DNA of 64,000 nucleotides from an uncultured Aliarcobacter sp. (GCA_963664305.2 CAXXLV010000002.1:1440001-1504000), one strand, 5' to 3'; counted from the first letter of the stretch, positions 23,957 to 34,231 are shown. Numbers and translations are program-made. Notes: generated by a model not told the origin, from the letters alone.

Positions 23957-24730
23957 TTATAAATTTAAATTCTTAATTAACTCATCATGAATTTTTCCAT
24001 TTGTTGCAACAATATATTTGTCTTCAAATAGATTATATTCCCCACCATTTATATTTGTTATTTTTCCACCCGCTTCACTTAAAATTAAAACTCCAGCACT
24101 TACATCCCAAGGTTTTAAATTCATTTCATAATAACCTTGAAAAGTTCCTCGTGCAACTAAACATAAATCAATTGAAGCACTTCCCAATCTTCTTAAATCT
24201 TGACAAAGAGGTAAAATATCTTTTATTTTTTTTACAACATCATTTAAGTCATCTTCACTAGAACCACTTGTGTATGGAAATCCTGTTGCAAGAAGTGCTT
24301 TTTGTAAATCTGCTTCATCACTAACTTTTAATTCTTTACCATTTAAAAAAGCACCTTTTCCAATCTTTGCTTCATATAATTCATCTAAAATTGGATTATA
24401 AACTATTGCTAAATATGGCTTTTTATCTTTGTAAACTCCAACTGAAATAGCAGTATGTGGTACACCATTTACAAAGTTTGTTGTTCCATCAATTGGGTCA
24501 ATAATAATTGAATTATTAAATTCTATATTTGCATTGTCTGATTCTTCTGCAATTATATTAAACTCTTTAAATTTTTTTGTAAATTTTTCTTTTAAATAAT
24601 TTTCAACAGCAACATCATATTTTGTTACTAAATCTTTTTTTGCTTTAAAAGTTACATCTTTATTTGAGTAATACCCTTTTTTTAAAATCTTTCCTGCTTT
24701 TTTTATTATTTTTATCAACTCTTTTTTCAT
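23957..24730 (-). CDS. suhB: Inositol monophosphatase family protein
   Basis: DPIDGTTNF, RRLGSASID, KPWDVSAG. Confidence 0.92.
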   Translation of the reverse strand: MKKELIKIIKKAGKILKKGYYSNKDVTFKAKKDLVTKYDVAVENYLKEKFTKKFKEFNIIAEESDNANIEFNNSIIIDPIDGTTNFVNGVPHTAISVGVYKDKKPYLAIVYNPILDELYEAKIGKGAFLNGKELKVSDEADLQKALLATGFPYTSGSSEDDLNDVVKKIKDILPLCQDLRRLGSASIDLCLVARGTFQGYYEMNLKPWDVSAGVLILSEAGGKITNINGGEYNLFEDKYIVATNGKIHDELIKNLNL

Positions 24731-24766
24731 TATTTTTTCCTAAATTTTTTCGTATTTTATCCAAAT

Positions 24767-24808
24767 ATGAACAAAAATTCATATTTAATTCATTATAAGT
24801 TCATATTC
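24767..24808 (+). promoter_or_regulatory. Putative OmpR/PhoB-type operator: TTCAT repeats at 11-bp period
   Basis: TTCAT at 24778, 24789, 24800; inverted ATGAA at 24767. Confidence 0.6.
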
Positions 24809-24844
24809 AAAGATTAAACTTTCAAAAAATAAGAAAGGATAATC

Positions 24845-25927
24845 TTGATTTCATATGCATTTAAAGCATTATTTGCAAATAAACTAAAAACTTTTTTAAT
24901 AATTTTAAGTTTAATATTTTCAATAGTATCAATCTTTTTAATTAGTTCTATTTCAAATGGAGTAATTTCTATGTACTCTTCAATGCTAAAAAGTGATGGA
25001 GATATCATTGTTACTCAAGCAAAAATATCTGATACATTTTTTTCAAATGTAAATATCAATTTAGTTGAAAAAATAAATAATTTAAAAGATATAAAAGATA
25101 CTTCTGCAATGACTGTGGGAGCTAGTCCTGTTGAAAAACTTCCAATTGTTGCAGTTTATGGCGTAACAAAAAATAGATTTAAAAACTATACTTTAATTGC
25201 TGGTAATTATCCTTCAAAAAATGAAGTTATTATTGGAAAATCTATTTTAGAACAACTTTTTAATAAAAATGAAATTCAAATTGCAAATAAAAGTTTCAAA
25301 ATCTCTGGAGTTTTTAAAAGTGAGATTGGTTTTGAAAATGGTGGAGTTGTTTTAAATATAGATGAAGCAGGAGAGATTTTTAATAAATCTGCTTCAATGA
25401 TTTTGGTAAATACAACTTTGAATTCTAATATTGAAAATATCATTAAAGATATAAAAAATTTATCAGATGAAATTGATGTTAAATCAACACAAAATTTTGT
25501 AGATAACTATAATCAATTTAAAATCATAAAAACCTCATCAAATGTTATTTCATTTATCGCATTTTCTATGGGGCTTCTTGGAATTGTAAGTCTTATGAGT
25601 ATTACAATAAATCAAAGAAAAGCTGAGTTTGGGATAAAAAGAGCATTAGGAATAAAAACATCAAAAATTGTTTATTCAATAATGGTTGAGAGCTTTTTAC
25701 TTGGAGTTTTCAGTTTCATTAGTGCTTTAATTATTTCAAATGTAACTCTATATTTTGTAAAAAATGCAAAAAGTTTACAAGGTTATGTAAATGGTGAAAT
25801 ATCTGTTGAACTAGCTTTTTATATCTTTGTTACTTCTATTTTTATGGCGATTATTGGTTCAATAATTCCAGCTTTAAATGCTGCAAAAACTGACCCAGTT
25901 GAGCTTATTCAAGGAAATAAAATATGA
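24845..25927 (+). CDS. MacB/FtsX-family ABC transporter permease
   Basis: N-terminal TM, periplasmic loop, QRKAEFGIKRALG, IPALNAAKTDPVE; TTG start with AAGGA SD. Confidence 0.92.
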   Translation: MISYAFKALFANKLKTFLIILSLIFSIVSIFLISSISNGVISMYSSMLKSDGDIIVTQAKISDTFFSNVNINLVEKINNLKDIKDTSAMTVGASPVEKLPIVAVYGVTKNRFKNYTLIAGNYPSKNEVIIGKSILEQLFNKNEIQIANKSFKISGVFKSEIGFENGGVVLNIDEAGEIFNKSASMILVNTTLNSNIENIIKDIKNLSDEIDVKSTQNFVDNYNQFKIIKTSSNVISFIAFSMGLLGIVSLMSITINQRKAEFGIKRALGIKTSKIVYSIMVESFLLGVFSFISALIISNVTLYFVKNAKSLQGYVNGEISVELAFYIFVTSIFMAIIGSIIPALNAAKTDPVELIQGNKI

Positions 25928-26547
25928 TAAAAACTTCAAATTTAACACATTATTACAACAAAGATTTAGCTTTAGAAAATATCAATTTAGAAATAAATAA
26001 AGGTGAATTTATTTGTTTAATTGGAGAAAGTGGAAGTGGAAAATCTACACTTTTATCACTTTTATCAACACTTTTAAAACCTACAAGTGGCGAACTATTT
26101 TTTGAAGGGAAAAACTATAAAGATATAAAAGATATTGATAATTTTAGAAAAACAAATATTGGTTTTATTTTTCAGTTTCATTATTTAATCAACTATTTAA
26201 CTGTTAAAGAAAATATAAAACTTGCAAATGAAAAAGCAACAAATGATGAGATTTATAATCTATTAAAAATTCTAAATATTGAAAATTTATTAGATAAATA
26301 TCCAAATGAAATTTCAGGTGGTCAAAAACAAAGAGTTGCAATTGCAAGAGCTTTGATAAACAAACCAAAAGTAATTATTGCAGATGAGCCAACAGGAAAT
26401 TTAGATTCTAAAAACTCTTTAAATGTTTTTGAGATATTAAAAAATTTAAGCGAAGAAGGAACAACAATAATTGTGGCGACTCACGACAAAGAACTAGCAA
26501 AATTTGCAAATAAAATTTATGAGGTAAAAGATGGAAAAATCAACTAA
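25924..26547 (+). CDS. ABC transporter ATP-binding protein (LolD/MacB-like)
   Basis: GESGSGKST, ISGGQKQRVAIARAL, ADEPTGNLD, THD. Confidence 0.95.
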   Translation: MIKTSNLTHYYNKDLALENINLEINKGEFICLIGESGSGKSTLLSLLSTLLKPTSGELFFEGKNYKDIKDIDNFRKTNIGFIFQFHYLINYLTVKENIKLANEKATNDEIYNLLKILNIENLLDKYPNEISGGQKQRVAIARALINKPKVIIADEPTGNLDSKNSLNVFEILKNLSEEGTTIIVATHDKELAKFANKIYEVKDGKIN

Positions 26548-28102
26548 TTTCGAACTTTTTATAAATAAACATTTCAAAATTTCTATTGCTTTTTTTGCTT
26601 TAGGACTATTTTTTGGAATTATTTATTCATTAAATTTATTGGGGCTTGTGATTGATTCACAAACGTTAAATCCAGTAAATATGAGAGCAATTCATATTAG
26701 TCTTATGCTTTATGGTTTTGTTCCTTTAATGCTTTCATATCTTCCTTTTTTACTAATAAATAAAGAAGTTGGAAGTTCACGTGAAGGTCTTAGATACTTA
26801 AATCTTTATACTATTATTTGGTATATCTTTTTAGTATTTATGGTTGTATCTTTACTTTTAGGAAAAAATAGAGGTTTAGCTTTTTATGATTTTGCTTATG
26901 AATTAAATTTCTTATTAGCATTTGCTGGATTATTCTATATTTTAGCTTTATACAAATTTATCAAACTTTATACTGTTCTTCCTTTATGGATAAAAGTATG
27001 TTTAAGAGTTGTGACAATTGCTCCATTTACACTATTAATTTTAATGAATCCAACTATTGGTCAAGTTGAAAGTACAGTATCTGGACCACATGGAGATAAT
27101 ACACTTGGAATGAGTTTAGCTTTAATTCCAATCTATTATTTAATAATCAAACTATTAAATGAGGGTGAATTTAAAGCTAGATGGAATATTTTATGGATTA
27201 TTCCAACAGTTTTTTATTTTGGTTCAGTTTTATATAGAATTTTTATTGGTCATCTTTCATACAACCAAGAGTGGTTTTTACAATATTTAACTCTTTTATA
27301 TGTTCCTCTTTTATATAGATGGTACAAAGATAGTAATATTAGTGATGTTGCTAAAAAAGCTCTATTAGTTTCTATTTTAGCTTTTTTATTTGTTGATGTT
27401 GAAGGAAATATAATTTTTATTCCTGAAATTAGATGGGTATTTCATAGAAATGATTTAATAGTTGCTCACGCTCATATTGCTATGGGAATTGGAGTATTTT
27501 TTATGGTTATTTCAATGTTTATAAATCATATCAAAGAACTACACAAAGATATATTTTTAAAAATCTATTTAGTTGGAATTATCGGAATTTTTACAGCTTT
27601 AAGTATCTCAGGATTTACACAAGCTGGATTTAACTCAATTCCAACTCATACACTTTGGATATTTAGAACTCTGTTTGGTTTAGTTGCATTTGGTTTTATA
27701 TTTGCTTTTATAAAACTTCAAACTTCATACTCAAAACTAGGATTTTATAATCTAATTGGAGTTTTAAGTGATGGATTAGGTGGTATTTCTTTAATCTTAT
27801 TTGCAAGTTTCTTATATCCTATTTTAGGATTTAGTTTTAGTGGAGTTTATGAATATGTTGTTTTTACGTTTGTTAGTATGACAGGGATTATTCACTATTT
27901 AGCTTTAAAAAATGAAGCTTATCAAATGATTTTAACTAAATTATCAGTGATTATTAGAGTATTTGCAAGTTCTATGTTTTTTGCCTTATATTCAAGTGGT
28001 AAACTTGAAATTGAAGCACTTATGATTTGCCTTTTTGATTTAACTTTTGTTTTCATTTATTTAATCTTTTTTTATGAAAAGGAGACTACATGCAAAGATT
28101 AA
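26531..28102 (+). CDS. Divergent heme-copper oxidase subunit I (CcoN-like) lacking the CuB His-His motif
   Basis: R52-A-I-H55, GPHGDN, VEG, FHRNDLIVAHAH match CcoN RPLH, GHN, FEG, SHYTDWTIGHVH by eye; no HH dipeptide. Confidence 0.75.
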   Translation: MEKSTNFELFINKHFKISIAFFALGLFFGIIYSLNLLGLVIDSQTLNPVNMRAIHISLMLYGFVPLMLSYLPFLLINKEVGSSREGLRYLNLYTIIWYIFLVFMVVSLLLGKNRGLAFYDFAYELNFLLAFAGLFYILALYKFIKLYTVLPLWIKVCLRVVTIAPFTLLILMNPTIGQVESTVSGPHGDNTLGMSLALIPIYYLIIKLLNEGEFKARWNILWIIPTVFYFGSVLYRIFIGHLSYNQEWFLQYLTLLYVPLLYRWYKDSNISDVAKKALLVSILAFLFVDVEGNIIFIPEIRWVFHRNDLIVAHAHIAMGIGVFFMVISMFINHIKELHKDIFLKIYLVGIIGIFTALSISGFTQAGFNSIPTHTLWIFRTLFGLVAFGFIFAFIKLQTSYSKLGFYNLIGVLSDGLGGISLILFASFLYPILGFSFSGVYEYVVFTFVSMTGIIHYLALKNEAYQMILTKLSVIIRVFASSMFFALYSSGKLEIEALMICLFDLTFVFIYLIFFYEKETTCKD

Positions 28103-29064
28103 TTTTAATATTTTTTATAGCAAGTGAATTGTGTTACTATTTACTAATAGCACAAACAGGTGTTGTTGAATACTTTTCATCAAATTTATTTTTAATAGCT
28201 CCTCTTCCAATTGGAGGAATTATTGGTTCAATATTAGTTTCATATATAAAAATAGATAACAAAAATAAAATATCTTTATTTTTAATTATTCAGTTAATTA
28301 TGAGTTTTATATATCCTCATTTTAATCTTCTAACACTATTTATTTTAGGATTTGCAGTTGGAAGTTTAGCTCCATTAATTATAAATGAAGTGAAAAAAAC
28401 TACATTTTTAGAACTTGGATTGGCATTGTCTTTATCATATGTAACAGGAACTATGCTTTTTAACTATGATGTATCACAAAGAGGATTTATTGCAATTGCA
28501 TTAACAACTATTACACTTATAGCTTCAAGATTTTTACCATCAAAAGATGATGAAAAAGAGTTTGACACAACAAATCATTCATTACTTATAATGATTTTAT
28601 GGGTATTTTTAGATTCAGCACTTTTTGAATCTTTATCAAGAGATTTAACTATTTCTATCTGGAGAGATGGATTTAGTTTTGAAATTGCTTTATTTCACGT
28701 AATTGGAGTTATATGTGCTTTATCGTTTAAAATTGAAAAAAATCAAAAAGAACTTTTGATTTTAACACTATTTGCACTTTCATATCTATTTTATTTTTTA
28801 AGGGAGGGATTTATTTTATCAATTATTTATCCATTCGTAATATCTTATTACAATGTGGTAATACTTCAAACTATTAGAAAAAAAGATTTTAAAACAATCT
28901 CATTTTATATGGTTCTAATAGGATGGATGGCTTCAGGTGGTGGGCTTTTTGTAGCCTTGGCAAATTTAATTCTTTTTGTTCCAATTACTCTTTTATTTGC
29001 GATTTTTAGAGTAATGACAAAAGAATATATACCAAACAATAAGGAGATAAAATGTTTAAATTAG
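28090..29064 (+). CDS. Polytopic membrane protein, possibly a divergent MFS fold
   Basis: About 11-12 hydrophobic segments in two halves with a polar linker. Confidence 0.7.
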   Translation: MQRLILIFFIASELCYYLLIAQTGVVEYFSSNLFLIAPLPIGGIIGSILVSYIKIDNKNKISLFLIIQLIMSFIYPHFNLLTLFILGFAVGSLAPLIINEVKKTTFLELGLALSLSYVTGTMLFNYDVSQRGFIAIALTTITLIASRFLPSKDDEKEFDTTNHSLLIMILWVFLDSALFESLSRDLTISIWRDGFSFEIALFHVIGVICALSFKIEKNQKELLILTLFALSYLFYFLREGFILSIIYPFVISYYNVVILQTIRKKDFKTISFYMVLIGWMASGGGLFVALANLILFVPITLLFAIFRVMTKEYIPNNKEIKCLN

Positions 29065-29573
29065 TTCTACTTTCAATTTTGAGTCTAGGTGCCTTTGCTA
29101 ATAGTTTAACTATAACTCAAGGTGAAATATCAGCACATACAGAAGTTTTTGGAGATAGCGAAATCAATCCAGCGACAAAAGAAGTAAAAGCAAATTTATC
29201 AATAGATGATAAAATTGAATCAATCAAAGGAAAAATCTTTTTTGATACATTAAGTCTTGTTAGTCAAAAAAAAGATAGAGATGCTCATATGTATGAATTA
29301 TTAAATGAGCCAAAATTCAAAACTATATCTTTTGATATAAAAAATATCGTAAAAAATGATACAAATTATGATATTAATGGTGTTGTAACATTAAACGGTG
29401 TTTCAAAAGATGTTACAGTAAAAAGTAATATAACAGAACAAAATAATCAAATTTTATTTGATGGTGGATTTTCATTTAATCTAACAGACTTTAATTTAGA
29501 ACCACCAACAATGTTCTTTTTAACAGTTAGAAATCAAATAGATATCTCTTACAAAATTGATTTAAAAAGATAA
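29052..29573 (+). CDS. YceI-family periplasmic protein
   Basis: Signal peptide, RDAHM, G..TLNGVSKDV, LTDFNLEPP. Confidence 0.88.
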   Translation: MFKLVLLSILSLGAFANSLTITQGEISAHTEVFGDSEINPATKEVKANLSIDDKIESIKGKIFFDTLSLVSQKKDRDAHMYELLNEPKFKTISFDIKNIVKNDTNYDINGVVTLNGVSKDVTVKSNITEQNNQILFDGGFSFNLTDFNLEPPTMFFLTVRNQIDISYKIDLKR

Positions 29574-29576
29574 ATT

Positions 29577-30032
29577 ATGTTAAAAAAACTTATATTATCA
29601 GTAATATTTATAAATTGTTTAAGCGCGGGAACTCTAAAAATAGACGATAAAATAAGTAATTTTTCATTAACTGATCAGTTTGATAAAATTCATACAATTA
29701 CATGTGACATTTCAACTATAATTGTAACTTTTCAAAAAAAGACTCTTATGATGGTAAATGATTATTTATCATCAAAGAGTGAAAACTTTTTAGAAAATCA
29801 TCATGCTATTTTCATAAATAATATTTCATCTAGTCCAACTATAATCACAAAAATGTTTACATTACCAAAACTAAGAGATTATAAATATACTATATTACTT
29901 ATTTATGATGAAAGTAATACAAAATTTGAAAAACAAAGTGACAAAATTACAACTTATTCTTTAGAAAATGGCTTTATCAAAAATATAAATTTTATATCTT
30001 CAATAGATGAATTAGACAGAGTTTTAAAATGA
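29577..30032 (+). CDS. Secreted hypothetical protein, possible thioredoxin-like/YtfJ-like fold without CxxC
   Basis: Signal peptide, FSLTDQFDK start typical of AhpC/TSA-like folds, ITKMFTLPKLR. Confidence 0.65.
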   Translation: MLKKLILSVIFINCLSAGTLKIDDKISNFSLTDQFDKIHTITCDISTIIVTFQKKTLMMVNDYLSSKSENFLENHHAIFINNISSSPTIITKMFTLPKLRDYKYTILLIYDESNTKFEKQSDKITTYSLENGFIKNINFISSIDELDRVLK

Positions 30033-30760
30033 ATTCTATTCCAAATGCAAATATTGTAGAAATAAATGTGGAAAATGAAAAATTAAATGATTTAAAAATT
30101 CTTCATTTAAGTGATTTACATATAAATAAAAAAACTTCTAAAAAAGAGATTTTAGATTTAGTAAATCATTGTAATAGTCTTGAATTTGACTTTTGTGTGA
30201 TTACAGGAGATATAATTGATACAAAAGTTAAATTTATTATAGAGCAACTTAAAATTCTAAATACTTTAAAAAATGAAGTTTTTTATATAAGTGGAAATCA
30301 TGATTTATTTTATGGTTTAGAAGATTTAAAAAAAGAGCTAACTAATTTCATTTTTATGGATAATGAAACTTTTAAAATTAACTATAAAAATGAGATTATA
30401 CATTTAGCAGGATTACCTGATAGATTTTCAAAATTTTTTAAAATAAAAAGAGATGAAAAGAAAATAGAAAATTATTTAAAAAATTCTCCTTCTATTTTTA
30501 TTTCTCACCAACCTAAAGATTATAAAATTGCAACAAATTCTGACTCAAATCTATTTTTATGTGGACATACCCACGGTGGACAGATTTATCCTTTTCATTA
30601 TTTAGTAAGACTTGTTCAACCTTTTTTAGCTGGATTATTTTATAAAAAAAACACTGCAATTTATGTAAATAAAGGTTTAGGATATTGGGGCGTAAATTTT
30701 AGGTATAAAGCCGATGCAGAAATCACTATATTGAAATTAATAACAAAAAGTGTAAAATAA
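30029..30760 (+). CDS. Metallophosphoesterase (YkuE/YaeI-like)
   Basis: SDLH, TGD, GNHD, SHQP, GHTHGGQ. Confidence 0.92.
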   Translation: MNSIPNANIVEINVENEKLNDLKILHLSDLHINKKTSKKEILDLVNHCNSLEFDFCVITGDIIDTKVKFIIEQLKILNTLKNEVFYISGNHDLFYGLEDLKKELTNFIFMDNETFKINYKNEIIHLAGLPDRFSKFFKIKRDEKKIENYLKNSPSIFISHQPKDYKIATNSDSNLFLCGHTHGGQIYPFHYLVRLVQPFLAGLFYKKNTAIYVNKGLGYWGVNFRYKADAEITILKLITKSVK

Positions 30761-30765
30761 TTTTC

Positions 30766-31434
30766 ATGAAAATATTAATAATTGAAGATGATATAAAAAT
30801 CATAAATTTTTTAAAAAAAGGTTTAGAAGAAGAGTGCTACATAGTTGATTTCTCAACAAATGGTGATGAGGGATTATATTTAGCTAGTGTTAACTCTTAT
30901 GACCTAATCTTACTTGATATTATGCTTCCTATAAAAGATGGAATTGAAGTATGTAAAAGTTTAAGAAGTTCAAATATTCAAACTCCTATAATAATGCTTA
31001 CTGCAAAAGATTCTATTGAAGATAAAATCAAAGGATTGGATATTGGAGCAAATGATTATTTAGCAAAACCTTTTTCATTTGCAGAATTACTTGCACGAAT
31101 TAGAGTTCAATTAAGAACTAATAGCGTAACACAAACAAAACTAACAATTGCAGATTTAGAACTTGATTTATTAAATAAAACAGCCACAAGAGCAAATGAA
31201 AATATAACTCTAACTGCAAAAGAGTTTTCACTTCTTGAATATCTAATAAAAAACAAAAATAGAGTTTTAAGTGAAACAACAATAAATGAGGCTCTTTCTT
31301 CTTTTGAAGATTCTAATATTAGTAATATTGTAAATGTTTATATTTATAGATTAAGAAATAAAATTGATAAAAATTTTGATAAAAAATTAATCAAAACGAT
31401 CAGAGGAATAGGATTTAAAATCAGTGAAGATTAA
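30766..31434 (+). CDS. OmpR-family response regulator (CusR/CzcR-like)
   Basis: IEDD, LDIMLP, MLTAKD, KPF, winged helix VYIYRLRNK...TIRGIGF. Confidence 0.95.
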   Translation: MKILIIEDDIKIINFLKKGLEEECYIVDFSTNGDEGLYLASVNSYDLILLDIMLPIKDGIEVCKSLRSSNIQTPIIMLTAKDSIEDKIKGLDIGANDYLAKPFSFAELLARIRVQLRTNSVTQTKLTIADLELDLLNKTATRANENITLTAKEFSLLEYLIKNKNRVLSETTINEALSSFEDSNISNIVNVYIYRLRNKIDKNFDKKLIKTIRGIGFKISED

Positions 31435-32800
31435 TTTAACAATCAAAAAGAAACTTTTAACTTATCACTTTCTTATTCAAACTTTAGTTTTAATGATTTT
31501 TTCATTTTCATTATATAAGGCTTTAGAAGTTTCAACTACAGATAAACTTGAAGCTACTTTAAAAGTTATCATTCTTGATATAACTGATGATATTTTAGAA
31601 AAAGATAAAATCACAGATAATGTTTTAGATGAAGAGAAAGAGTATAAATTTGAACCTTTATATATTAGAATTTTAGATAATAAAACTCACAAAAAAATAA
31701 CACAAACAAGTAATTTTCCAGATAATATAGAACATGATGACAATTATTTAAATGTTTTAAAAGAAAATATCGTAACTTTTGAAAAACAAAACAACTATTT
31801 AGTAAGTAGGATAAAAATAGATTTCCATGGTGAACAAACAATCATTATTGAAGCTGTAACAACAAAAGATATGCTAACTTCAACATTAGAAAACTTACTA
31901 TATATTTTTTATTTTATACTTCCAATAGTTCTTATTTTTGCAGTAATTGGTGGAAACTTTATAATCTATAAATCATTTTCACCAATTGAAAATATTTTAT
32001 TTGAGCTAAAACAGATAAATGCAAATGATTTATCAGCAAGATTAAAAGAGACAAAAACAAAAGATGAAATTTATCAACTAATAAAAGAAGTTAATAATCT
32101 TCTATCTCGTTTAGAAAACTCTTTTGAAAGAATTTCGCAATTCAGTTCAGATGCTTCTCATGAGTTAAAAACTCCCCTTACAATAATAAAAGGTGAAATA
32201 GAAGTAGCGTTGAGAAAAGATAGAACTATAAATGAATATAAAGATTCATTAAAAACTTCTCTAAATGAGATTTGTATAATCGAACAAACGATAAATGATT
32301 TACTTTTCTTAGCTAAAAATGAAAAAGATTTAATAGTTGATAAACAAGAAGAGTTTTATTTAGATGAATTGACAGATGAAGCAATCAACGAGCTTAGAAA
32401 TTTTGCAAAACTTCATAAAGTAGAAACAACTCTTTTAATTGAAGATAGTATAGAACTAAAAGGTTTCCCAAATTTATTAAAAATAGCCATCAAAAATGCT
32501 TTAAAAAATGCTATTCAATTTAGTCATGAAAATTCTGAAGTTATTGTAAAAATATTTAAGAAAGAGAATCTTTTAAATATTTCAATACAAGATTTTGGAA
32601 TTGGTATTCCTTTAAATGAACAAAATAAAATATTTGAAAAATTTTATAGAACAGATAAAAGTAGGAATAAAAATTCTGGTGGGACAGGTCTTGGAATGTC
32701 AATTTTAAAAAAGATTGTTGATATTCATAAAGGTGAAATAAATATAAAAAGTATAGAAAATTCAGGTACAACAATTAGCTTATCATTTCCTATAAAATAA
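31424..32800 (+). CDS. Sensor histidine kinase (CusS/CzcS-like, HAMP)
   Basis: FSSDASHELKTPL, DFGIGI, FYRTDKSR, GTGLG. Confidence 0.94.
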   Translation: MKINLTIKKKLLTYHFLIQTLVLMIFSFSLYKALEVSTTDKLEATLKVIILDITDDILEKDKITDNVLDEEKEYKFEPLYIRILDNKTHKKITQTSNFPDNIEHDDNYLNVLKENIVTFEKQNNYLVSRIKIDFHGEQTIIIEAVTTKDMLTSTLENLLYIFYFILPIVLIFAVIGGNFIIYKSFSPIENILFELKQINANDLSARLKETKTKDEIYQLIKEVNNLLSRLENSFERISQFSSDASHELKTPLTIIKGEIEVALRKDRTINEYKDSLKTSLNEICIIEQTINDLLFLAKNEKDLIVDKQEEFYLDELTDEAINELRNFAKLHKVETTLLIEDSIELKGFPNLLKIAIKNALKNAIQFSHENSEVIVKIFKKENLLNISIQDFGIGIPLNEQNKIFEKFYRTDKSRNKNSGGTGLGMSILKKIVDIHKGEINIKSIENSGTTISLSFPIK

Positions 32801-32836
32801 CTTTTTTATGTTTCAGTTTGTTTTAATGAAAAAAGA

Positions 32837-32845
32837 TGTTATAAT
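32837..32845 (+). promoter_or_regulatory. Extended -10 promoter (TGnTATAAT)
   Basis: tgttataat upstream of the sORF. Confidence 0.55.
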
Positions 32846-32875
32846 TACATTATCTTAAACAATTTAGGAGGTTAA

Positions 32876-32914
32876 ATGGCGAAAATTTCACTTTTTATGG
32901 TTGTTAAAATTTAA
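32876..32914 (+). CDS. Putative small ORF, 12 aa (MAKISLFMVVKI)
   Basis: Perfect AGGAGG at 32866-32871, own promoter and terminator. Confidence 0.45.
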   Translation: MAKISLFMVVKI

Positions 32915-32984
32915 CTCAAAAGTAAGTTTATTTTTAAGTAAACTTGGTAAATAAAAGTTTTATTTACTAAATAAATAATTTTTT

Positions 32985-33012
32985 AAAGGGCTCTATTTAG
33001 GAGCCCTTTTTT
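32985..33012 (+). terminator. Intrinsic terminator, probably bidirectional
   Basis: aaagggctc-tatttag-gagcccttt plus T-run. Confidence 0.85.
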
Positions 33013-33013
33013 A

Positions 33014-34231
33014 TTAGTCATTAAAAACTATATCTATTGCATTTATTATATCAATATCAATTTTATAATCACTTAGATTTTTTCTTAAAATTGATATAGC
33101 TTGATTATGAGACATTGAGTTTCTATATGGTCTATCCTCAACTAAAGCTTGATAAAAATCTAAACATGAAACGATTCTTTCTTCAAGTCCCAATTCATTT
33201 GAAGTTAAACCAAAAGGATAACCTGAACCGTCAAGTTTTTCATGGTGGGCTGATGCCCATTTTGTAATATCACTAAAATTATCTATTTTACTTAATATTA
33301 AATGTGTTAAATAAGCATGTTTTTTTATCTCAAAAAGTTCTTTTTGTGATAAACTGCCCTCTTTATCTAAAATTGTATTTGGAGTTCCAAGTTTTCCAAT
33401 ATCATGTAAATTTGATGCTATTTGGATTTTTAATTTTGTTTCTTCATCTAAATTAAAATATTCCACAAGTCTTAAAGATTTTTCTTCTAAATCAACAGAA
33501 TGTTTTGCCGTAAATTTTGATTTTCCATCAATTATTTTTGAAAATATTTTTGTAATTGATAAAAATTTATCCAAAGAAACATCTATCGCAAAATTTGGTA
33601 ATATTTTTTCTAAAGGATTTACTTCATCAAAAAACTCTAAATCTCCCCAAAATAAAAAAGAATTAGATAAAGTTTTATAAACATCAACAATTTGTGTTGA
33701 AAAAAGCTTTTTCTCATTTTCTAAAACAAAAGCTAAAATCAACTCTTTTTTATCATAACAAATATTTGATAATTCAAAAGTTGTATCTAAAGTATCTGCA
33801 AATGAGATTAATTGAGCAAATAAGGGAATTTCATCTGCTTTCTTTCCAAAAAGACCAGAACCATCATAATTTTCATGATGATAAAGAATTATATCTTTTT
33901 GTTTAGTTAGAAAAGGAAATTCTTTTATATTATTTTCTCCAATTGAGCAGTGTTCTGAAAAATTAACAAAGTTAAAATAGTCCTCTTTTTTATTTAATTC
34001 GGATTGTGAAGTAAAATTACAAAAACTCTCTATCAAACCATTATCATGCAATAAAGAGTATGAGCATAAATCAAATTTATCTTCATCACTCAGGCCAATT
34101 ATTTCTGCCATTTTTAAACAAATATACGCAACTCTTTTACTATGTTTTGAAGAGGTACATTTTATTTCACTTTCGGCTAAATCTAAAGCAAATGATATTG
34201 AAAATAGAAATTTATTGAGGCTAAGTGTCAT
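33014..34231 (-). CDS. Tandem HD/HD-GYP domain protein
   Basis: LLHDNG...HHENYDGSG and LHDIGK...HHEKLDGSGYP. Confidence 0.9.
   Translation of the reverse strand: MTLSLNKFLFSISFALDLAESEIKCTSSKHSKRVAYICLKMAEIIGLSDEDKFDLCSYSLLHDNGLIESFCNFTSQSELNKKEDYFNFVNFSEHCSIGENNIKEFPFLTKQKDIILYHHENYDGSGLFGKKADEIPLFAQLISFADTLDTTFELSNICYDKKELILAFVLENEKKLFSTQIVDVYKTLSNSFLFWGDLEFFDEVNPLEKILPNFAIDVSLDKFLSITKIFSKIIDGKSKFTAKHSVDLEEKSLRLVEYFNLDEETKLKIQIASNLHDIGKLGTPNTILDKEGSLSQKELFEIKKHAYLTHLILSKIDNFSDITKWASAHHEKLDGSGYPFGLTSNELGLEERIVSCLDFYQALVEDRPYRNSMSHNQAISILRKNLSDYKIDIDIINAIDIVFND

Follow-up and report, generated by a model that had tools for sequence, protein, structure and literature searches.

A CcoN-fold protein without its copper-site histidines lies in a two-phylum operon headed by the same promoter box as lipid A-modifying genes

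The window analyzed here is a stretch of 64,000 nucleotides from an uncultured Aliarcobacter sp. (GCA_963664305.2 CAXXLV010000002.1:1440001-1504000). Its subject is an intact open reading frame (ORF) on the + strand, 26531-28102, which encodes a 523-residue membrane protein with the fold of the cbb3 oxidase subunit CcoN but without its copper (CuB) ligands. The gene belongs to an operon with relatives in Campylobacterota and Verrucomicrobiota. The features within the gene are these:

26531..28102, + strand: CcoN-fold protein without the CuB ligands (residues 1-396), with a C-terminal four-helix domain; 523 aa (Pfam, model, profiles)
26693..26695, + strand: H55, predicted low-spin heme ligand, the His of CcoN RPLH (126/126 and 121/121 relatives in the two branches; profile alignments)
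27089..27097, + strand: H187-G188-D189, with D189 at the position of the helix VI CuB His (profile alignments; predicted local distance difference test, pLDDT, below 50 at residues 180-189)
27248..27253, + strand: G240-H241, aligned with the HH pair of CcoN but not conserved (HHalign; family counts)
27467..27475, + strand: H313-A-H315, predicted high-spin and low-spin heme ligands (126/126 and 121/121)
27734..28069, + strand: extra four-helix membrane domain with conserved D414, R476 and D503 and a weak likeness to DUF4345 (model, alignments, Pfam)

Among relatives with names, the closest come from Arcobacter (97% identity) and for the most part carry the label "hypothetical". A preliminary description of the window had read RAIH (residue 52), GPHGDN (185), SVLYRIFIGHLSYNQEW (232), VEG (290) and FHRNDLIVAHAH (304) as motifs in CcoN-like order and had noticed the absence of an HH dipeptide; both observations are confirmed, and none of 126 Campylobacterota-type relatives has HH anywhere. 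The Pfam COX1 score is 22.7 bits, below the gathering cut-off of 34.8, with COX1 the only Pfam match at E<=0.1; NnrS, a heme- and copper-containing membrane protein, gave no match. A search of the PDB with the single sequence likewise returned nothing, whereas the 124-row family profile matches only cbb3 CcoN chains there, end to end (E 0.008). Profile comparison by HHalign prefers CcoN (96%, E 1e-9) over NorB of the nitric oxide (NO) reductases (NOR; 73%, E 3e-5). For the AlphaFold2 model (pLDDT 90.7), cbb3 and NOR structures lead the Foldseek match list, with cbb3 first. Superposition of residues 1-396 by VIA-align gives Z 28.8 with both CcoN (3mk7; root-mean-square deviation, rmsd, 3.9, 377 aligned) and NorB (3o0r; rmsd 3.4, 371 aligned). 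Because fold and profile searches agree, although the Pfam score alone falls short, the modeled residues 1-396 are confirmed as a heme-copper oxidase (HCO) domain of the 12-transmembrane-helix subunit I type. The extra C-terminal helices noted earlier number four (residues 402-513). They form a domain that is a separate gene in most Verrucomicrobiota-type loci and fused in others. Four of ten stand-alone copies match DUF4345, all below cut-off, the copy in the window gives no match to it, and a search of the Atlas with the domain gave only leads below 0.9.

The basis for expecting two hemes and no copper lies in the alignments. H55, H313 and H315, aligned to the CcoN heme ligands, are invariant in both branches (126/126 Campylobacterota-type and 121/121 Verrucomicrobiota-type rows), as the preliminary description had proposed for this protein, and they persist across about 20% identity within the family. 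Apart from these ligands, only glycines and R379 are invariant across the two branches. At the copper side, the helix VI ligand is lost: both profile alignments place G188-D189-N190 opposite the CcoN G-H-N, and the Verrucomicrobiota type has A, S or T at the D189 position. The same register rules out H187 as a CuB ligand and undoes the earlier equation of the GPHGDN His with that of CcoN GHN. The helix VII pair of CcoN falls on G240-H241; since H241 is His in just 41/126 Campylobacterota-type rows and Pro in 65/126, it is rejected as a functional ligand. An HH found in 111/121 Verrucomicrobiota-type rows was also rejected as the CuB pair, as it lies several residues downstream in a loop (a register judged by eye and by HHalign only). 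By alignment, all three CuB histidines are thus lost family-wide, so the missing pair reported at first was an undercount. The cross-linked His-Tyr pair is not conserved either: its His is absent, and Y235, in a helix VII register uncertain by one residue, occurs in 103/126 Campylobacterota-type rows and is absent from the Verrucomicrobiota type. Nor are the FeB ligands of NOR (three His and a Glu, HxxxE) present, the position of the NorB Glu being L192. The protein likely binds two hemes and cannot build a canonical CuB/FeB centre, as had been suggested; because that centre cannot form, a chemistry different from that of canonical HCOs is implied.

A representative search gave 69 matches, two of them distant (24% and 28%), and one of the distant ones led to 580 relatives; the few of these with organism names are Verrucomicrobiota, in agreement with the Atlas, and belong to the Opitutales (Rariglobus, Nibricoccus, Opitutus and Actomonas). 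The Campylobacterota-type and Verrucomicrobiota-type branches align with an HHalign probability of 96%. Strong matches occur in 37/401 Campylobacterota genomes; none of them belongs to f2 (118 genomes) or f3 (158 genomes), the largest families in the sample. Three weak Campylobacterota matches overlap, on cross-checking, canonical oxidase genes, and two of these were shown to be CcoN. Reading frames are full-length in 37/38 strong matches, and third-position changes are about threefold more frequent than second-position changes in four orthologue pairs; one sequence with a stop inside the matched range (L019) was excluded from alignments A1 and A3. In a quick IQ-TREE phylogeny, computed without bootstrap and with the tool's own warning that such long-branch joins may be false, the two types, each on a long branch, meet near the C-family, with the presumed gNOR-type rows elsewhere; this placement is unsure. 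The source genome has one intact ccoNOQP elsewhere, so respiration is already covered, and tblastn found no NorB, qNOR or gNOR in it.

Several sequences at the margins of the family deserve mention. One locus (L002) with 79% identity and Arcobacter gene order is labelled Candidatus Paceibacteria and is probably mis-binned. A plasmid collection contained no relative with either query; divergent ccoN-ccoO-cytochrome c clusters on Sinorhizobium, Ralstonia and Komagataeibacter plasmids (L166, L167, L168) were rejected as members, as all keep HH and group beside canonical CcoN. Membrane proteins of 411-424 aa with faint COX1 matches (L221:3600-4871, L222:3578-4813, L223:3653-4927) have neither HH nor HxH and were set aside as a separate degenerate HCO-like group.

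Around the gene, the reading frames from 24845 to 32800 overlap or abut:

24845..25927, + strand: MacB/FtsX-type (type VII) ATP-binding cassette (ABC) permease, 360 aa (Pfam MacB_PCD and FtsX above cut-off; PDB matches of MacB/LolE/LolF type)
25924..26547, + strand: ABC ATPase, LolD/MacB-like, 207 aa (Pfam ABC_tran; best NCBIfam LolD, below cut-off)
28090..29064, + strand: compact 12-helix protein with the fold of the major facilitator superfamily (MFS), 324 aa (model pLDDT 93.6; structure matches)
29052..29573, + strand: YceI-family periplasmic polyisoprenoid/quinone-binding protein (Pfam YceI above cut-off; PDB YceI matches)
29577..30032, + strand: conserved 151-aa protein, family unassigned, in Campylobacterota loci only (38/52 loci; no Pfam match)
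30029..30760, + strand: metallophosphoesterase, YaeI/LpxG-like below cut-offs (Pfam/NCBIfam; 36/52 loci)
30766..31434, + strand: OmpR-family response regulator (Pfam/NCBIfam)
31424..32800, + strand: sensor histidine kinase; the acidic motif E70-x-x-E73 in its periplasmic part is conserved (Pfam/NCBIfam, alignment)
32985..33009, + strand: terminator-like hairpin after the kinase gene (consensus match only)

Among 52 related genome loci, some of them cut by contig ends, the ATPase is found in 50, the permease and YceI in 49 each and the MFS-fold protein in 48; an MBL-hydrolase-like gene occurs in 4/52, against 36/52 for the metallophosphoesterase. The MFS-fold model has only MFS proteins among its top matches (EfpA: Z 24.4, rmsd 3.4, 301 aligned). 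The regulator scores below all NCBIfam cut-offs, best with heavy-metal regulators. The kinase motif is conserved in 29/31 and 31/31 sequences, and by likeness to PmrB and ColS this ExxE might be a metal site. No same-strand ORF with CxxCH lies within -2.5/+3.5 kb in any of the 52 loci, a Pfam scan found no cupredoxin gene in the operon, and no denitrification gene cluster recurs among the neighbors. A sigma-70 promoter scan of the region stayed at chance level. Over window positions 24001-34000 the GC skew is near zero or positive across the operon and negative in the flanks, which matches its + orientation among - strand genes, and the GC content is not unusual. Between the kinase gene and groEL lies, by eye, an HD-GYP-like 405-aa gene (33014-34231, - strand).

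The sister branch places the same gene among similar partners. Across 80 partly redundant metagenome loci of the Verrucomicrobiota type, the genes run from YceI through short-chain prenyl diphosphate synthase, permease and ATPase to the oxidase-like gene, followed by the four-helix protein (separate or fused), an MFS protein that carries CcoO and a second c-type cytochrome as fused domains, the regulator and the kinase. Where enough upstream DNA is present, the ATPase is found in 30/30 loci, the permease in 27/30, YceI in 24/30 and the prenyl synthase in 23/30; with enough downstream DNA, the MFS(-CcoO) cluster is found in 29/32, the regulator in 21/32 and the kinase in 20/32. The MFS domains of the two branches are homologous (HHalign E 3e-5, 277 columns, probability 73%) and share conserved E27, D175, H203, Y247 and Y254. 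Longer MFS fusions (680-2000 aa) were sought and did not turn up, a weak negative. Because its MFS protein is fused to CcoO and cytochrome c, the sister branch keeps the electron-entry domain of cbb3, for which none of the 52 Campylobacterota loci has a gene nearby, and the intact CxxCH motifs of its cytochrome c domains imply real electron flow to some acceptor. The CcoN-fold gene therefore sits in a fixed operon in two phyla, and the early statement that it has no partner subunits stands only for an adjacent cytochrome c gene in Campylobacterota. In one Verrucomicrobiota-type subgroup (L093, L095, L103, L106, L111), a multiheme cytochrome c of about 745 aa directly upstream of the permease replaces YceI and the prenyl synthase; in L056 (5126-6623) and L057, a second four-helix gene and an MFS gene without cytochrome c lie just upstream of YceI.

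A promoter element precedes the operon:

24767..24804, + strand: box ATGAA-N6-TTCAT-N6-TTCAT-N6-TTCAT, 38 bp, 11-bp periodic, OmpR-type (conserved upstream of the operon in both phyla)

The box matches once in the window and in none of 100 shuffles. The source genome holds 39 TTCAT-N6-TTCAT pairs, and only two intergenic sites carry further repeats. The second of these precedes a cluster (G000:C1:706022-713100; L227:3522-10586) of eptA, PAP2, dgkA, a DUF1924 cytochrome c, a diheme c, cytochrome b561, a second diheme c, a 129-aa protein, a regulator and a kinase. Its cytochrome b and second diheme c are separate overlapping ORFs in the source genome, and A. butzleri is listed with a CytB/DHC chimera (PMC2909971), so that a frameshift or split is possible. 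Across 61 family genomes, 28 box matches were found in 22 genomes, with none for the reversed control; 20 precede the CcoN-fold operon and the other eight precede eptA (1), sulfatase-fold membrane transferases (2), cytochrome b561 (1) and DUF5666 (4). The matches stand 37-48 bp before the start codon. The DUF5666 genes encode small secreted proteins, have the box 44-47 bp upstream in four genomes (L236, L249, L251, L252) and are candidate regulon members. A looser box precedes the operon's own regulator in 3/52 loci. In the Verrucomicrobiota type, despite high GC, a box with up to four mismatches lies upstream of 19/25 distinct YceI genes, against none in 20 shuffles; in one locus an LTA-synthase-like gene is preceded by a second box. 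The CcoN-fold operon and lipid A-modifying genes thus share a promoter box. Its likely binder is the operon's own regulator, since that regulator is present in both phyla. In Pseudomonas, eptA, pap2 and dgkA are targets or candidates of ColRS (10.1101/2021.12.14.472530, PMC13524251).

Published expression tables, in which we matched genes by order and labels rather than by sequence, are consistent with this regulon. In A. butzleri BZe327 treated with disinfectant D, an amine cationic surfactant, C_00236-C_00242 rise by 2.2-7.5 log2 (PMC13276354 Table S8); C_00240, the presumed orthologue of the CcoN-fold gene, rises by 3.4 log2, and C_00237 is called by edgeR only. The same treatment raises eptA-like, PAP2, DUF1924, diheme c and cytochrome b genes by 1.3-4.3 log2, and hypochlorite changed only two genes in this strain (PMC13276354). 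RNA sequencing runs yielded just short contigs from related strains, too little to show expression of the operon. In a cemR mutant, the kinase, regulator and MFS (RNA) and YceI (protein) are up about twofold and eptA RNA is not (PMC11334517).

Taken together, the operon and its regulon point to envelope lipid handling over gas or NO metabolism. The reading we tentatively prefer, at somewhat less than an even chance, is that the CcoN-fold protein is a two-heme redox enzyme acting on an isoprenoid lipid destined for the envelope and not serving respiration. The protein would bind two b hemes. Electrons would enter through the low-spin heme; their source would be the fused CcoO and cytochrome c in Verrucomicrobiota and, in Campylobacterota, a donor encoded elsewhere. 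Because small residues occupy the former copper position, the high-spin heme may be open to a bulky substrate, and it would be unable to perform four-electron reduction of O2. The substrate may be an isoprenoid lipid of the membrane, either a quinone or a prenyl derivative, because the neighbors are a prenyl synthase, YceI, a LolCDE/MacB-type extractor, an MFS protein and lipid phosphatases and transferases. Ubiquinone-8 is a ligand of YceI proteins, which in Burkholderia have the di-heme cytochrome LcoA as a partner (PMC9113575). The MFS protein and the MacB-type ABC transporter would move the lipid and hand it to YceI. Under cationic or metal stress, the operon's regulator would bind the 38-bp box and the lipid would be moved into the envelope, with electrons flowing either toward O2-dependent oxidation or toward re-reduction of an antioxidant. 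The fuller proposal is somewhat more doubtful than its enzymatic core: that a cbb3-derived, copper-emptied subunit is the core of an undescribed machine in which an isoprenoid lipid is made or redox-processed, flipped by the MFS protein, extracted by the MacB-type ABC and shipped by YceI, switched on together with eptA through the box regulator.

A number of observations weigh against this proposal. Heme binding and the lipid substrate are predictions, and the Campylobacterota operon has neither prenyl synthase nor cytochrome c. The loci are related and partly redundant, so their counts are not independent. H187, D189, R236, Y244 and E247 could form a new metal or catalytic site, in the Campylobacterota type only, and the AlphaFold2 model is unreliable exactly at residues 180-189. 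The disinfectant response is broad (237 genes up), the operon's LolD and CpdA labels are found for one of three strains only, and its regulator and kinase are not among the induced genes in the tables cited (PMC13276354). In strain RM4018, oxidative stress left all genes of Abu_0433-0441 unchanged, which makes a simple antioxidant function less likely; since it did alter DUF1924 and diheme c, the two operons can be uncoupled (PMC11334517 Data S2).

The alternative that survives best, unlikely as we judge it, is redox-coupled metal handling, with the MFS protein moving Fe or Cu in or out and the di-heme protein oxidizing or reducing the metal. Ferroportin, which works with a ferroxidase, is the natural analogy, and the fusion of the MFS protein to CcoO-cytochrome c, the polar MFS residues conserved in both branches, the kinase ExxE motif and the leaning of the regulator toward heavy-metal regulators (below cut-off) would all fit. 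So would the eptA, PAP2 and dgkA genes, which fall under the metal-sensing ColRS in Pseudomonas. Yet ferroportin matches the MFS model no better than other MFS folds do (Z 19.5 vs 24.4), and YceI, the prenyl synthase and the MacB-type ABC are left unexplained. The FEARE motif of ColS is dispensable for metal binding (PMC13524251), so the inference from the kinase motif is weak.

Gas chemistry is rather less probable: H187, D189 and E247 would bind a metal, or an open heme would serve as an O2/NO sensor, dioxygenase or peroxidase. These residues are conserved in the Campylobacterota type (H187 in 125/126; D189, R236 and E247 in 126/126 each; Y244 nearly invariant), and gNOR sets a precedent for Asp in place of His (PMC11214002). 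The DUF1924-diheme c-cytochrome b genes under the same box look like the SHP operon, which encodes an O2- and NO-binding heme protein (PMC2909971), and the source genome has no NOR of its own by tblastn. But the candidate positions are T, A or non-polar in all 55 Verrucomicrobiota-type rows, in the very branch that keeps CcoO. The two branches have no polar residue in common where CuB once sat, so a cavity fits better than a rebuilt metal site. The neighborhood, free of recurrent denitrification genes, and L192 at the NorB FeB Glu position do not favor this chemistry either.

A slightly smaller chance goes to a scaffold or six-coordinate wire that would organize the MFS protein, four-helix domain and ABC transporter, its hemes relaying electrons or stabilizing the fold; the short list of cross-branch invariant residues and the long branches suit this, but the intact CxxCH domains of the sister branch do not. 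Heme export or detoxification is more improbable again. HrtAB extracts heme from the membrane, and here a MacB-type ABC would do so with the CcoN-fold protein as heme sink or donor, as the size and type VII architecture of the permease, the operon's own two-component system and the retained heme ligands might suggest. However, no HrtB chain is among the 11 PDB matches of the permease at E<=1, and co-regulation with eptA and lipid enzymes, the prenyl synthase and the CcoO fusion are left unexplained. That the protein is an ordinary oxidase or NO reductase diverged beyond recognition, or a decaying ccoN copy, is very improbable, even though some sources give automatic labels of the kind "cbb3-type subunit I", given the absent CuB/FeB ligands, the full-length frames, the codon-position bias and the operon fixed in two phyla.

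Should the lipid-redox proposal be true, the HCO scaffold would turn out to modify lipids outside respiration, and defense against cationic stress would gain a new arm. Throughout the heme-copper superfamily the CuB/FeB histidines are regarded as nearly universal, and the family offers a natural "copper-less oxidase" for asking what else this scaffold catalyzes. The box points to the likely regulator, provides eptA as a co-regulated marker and suggests cationic membrane stress as a candidate inducer, and a role is offered for YceI carriers and for a type VII ABC. Full-text searches, with most subscription papers outside their scope and most papers judged from listings, found no published description of the family, and the sections of PMC11214002 cited here do not describe it.

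Comparison with known systems places the family outside the C-family oxidases, cNOR/qNOR and gNOR. With cbb3 CcoN, its best profile match, it shares the 12-helix fold, the three heme-ligand histidines, R52, a CcoO domain kept in the sister branch and an acidic residue, D120, at the position of a conserved CcoN Glu that serves as a Ca ligand. It differs in the missing CuB histidines and His-Tyr pair, at 12% identity, in the extra four-helix domain and in an operon of transporters and YceI in place of ccoOQP/GHIS. NorB of cNOR and qNOR (PDB 3o0r, 4xyd) ties with CcoN in fold and has the heme ligands, but its profile match is weaker, its FeB ligands are lacking here, and norC and norQD are absent. 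Like gNOR and other new HCO families, it is an HCO member with an altered active site. gNOR, with Asp for one His, was called the first HCO to replace an active-site His (Murali et al. 2024, PMC11214002); it is B-family-derived, has a cupredoxin subunit and has one His replaced, whereas the present family, closest to the C-family, has lost all three. The BcnA-LcoA system (YceI lipocalin and cytochrome b561; PMC9113575) also pairs YceI with a di-heme membrane cytochrome for envelope protection; here the cytochrome has the HCO fold, an MFS protein, a MacB-type ABC and a two-component system are added, and the operon was not induced by oxidative stress in one data set. Regulons of the ColRS/PmrAB type likewise have an OmpR-type pair, a repeat box and eptA-PAP2-dgkA among their targets; the box found here is a different one, and the HCO-fold operon, unmentioned for ColRS in the sections cited, belongs to its regulon.

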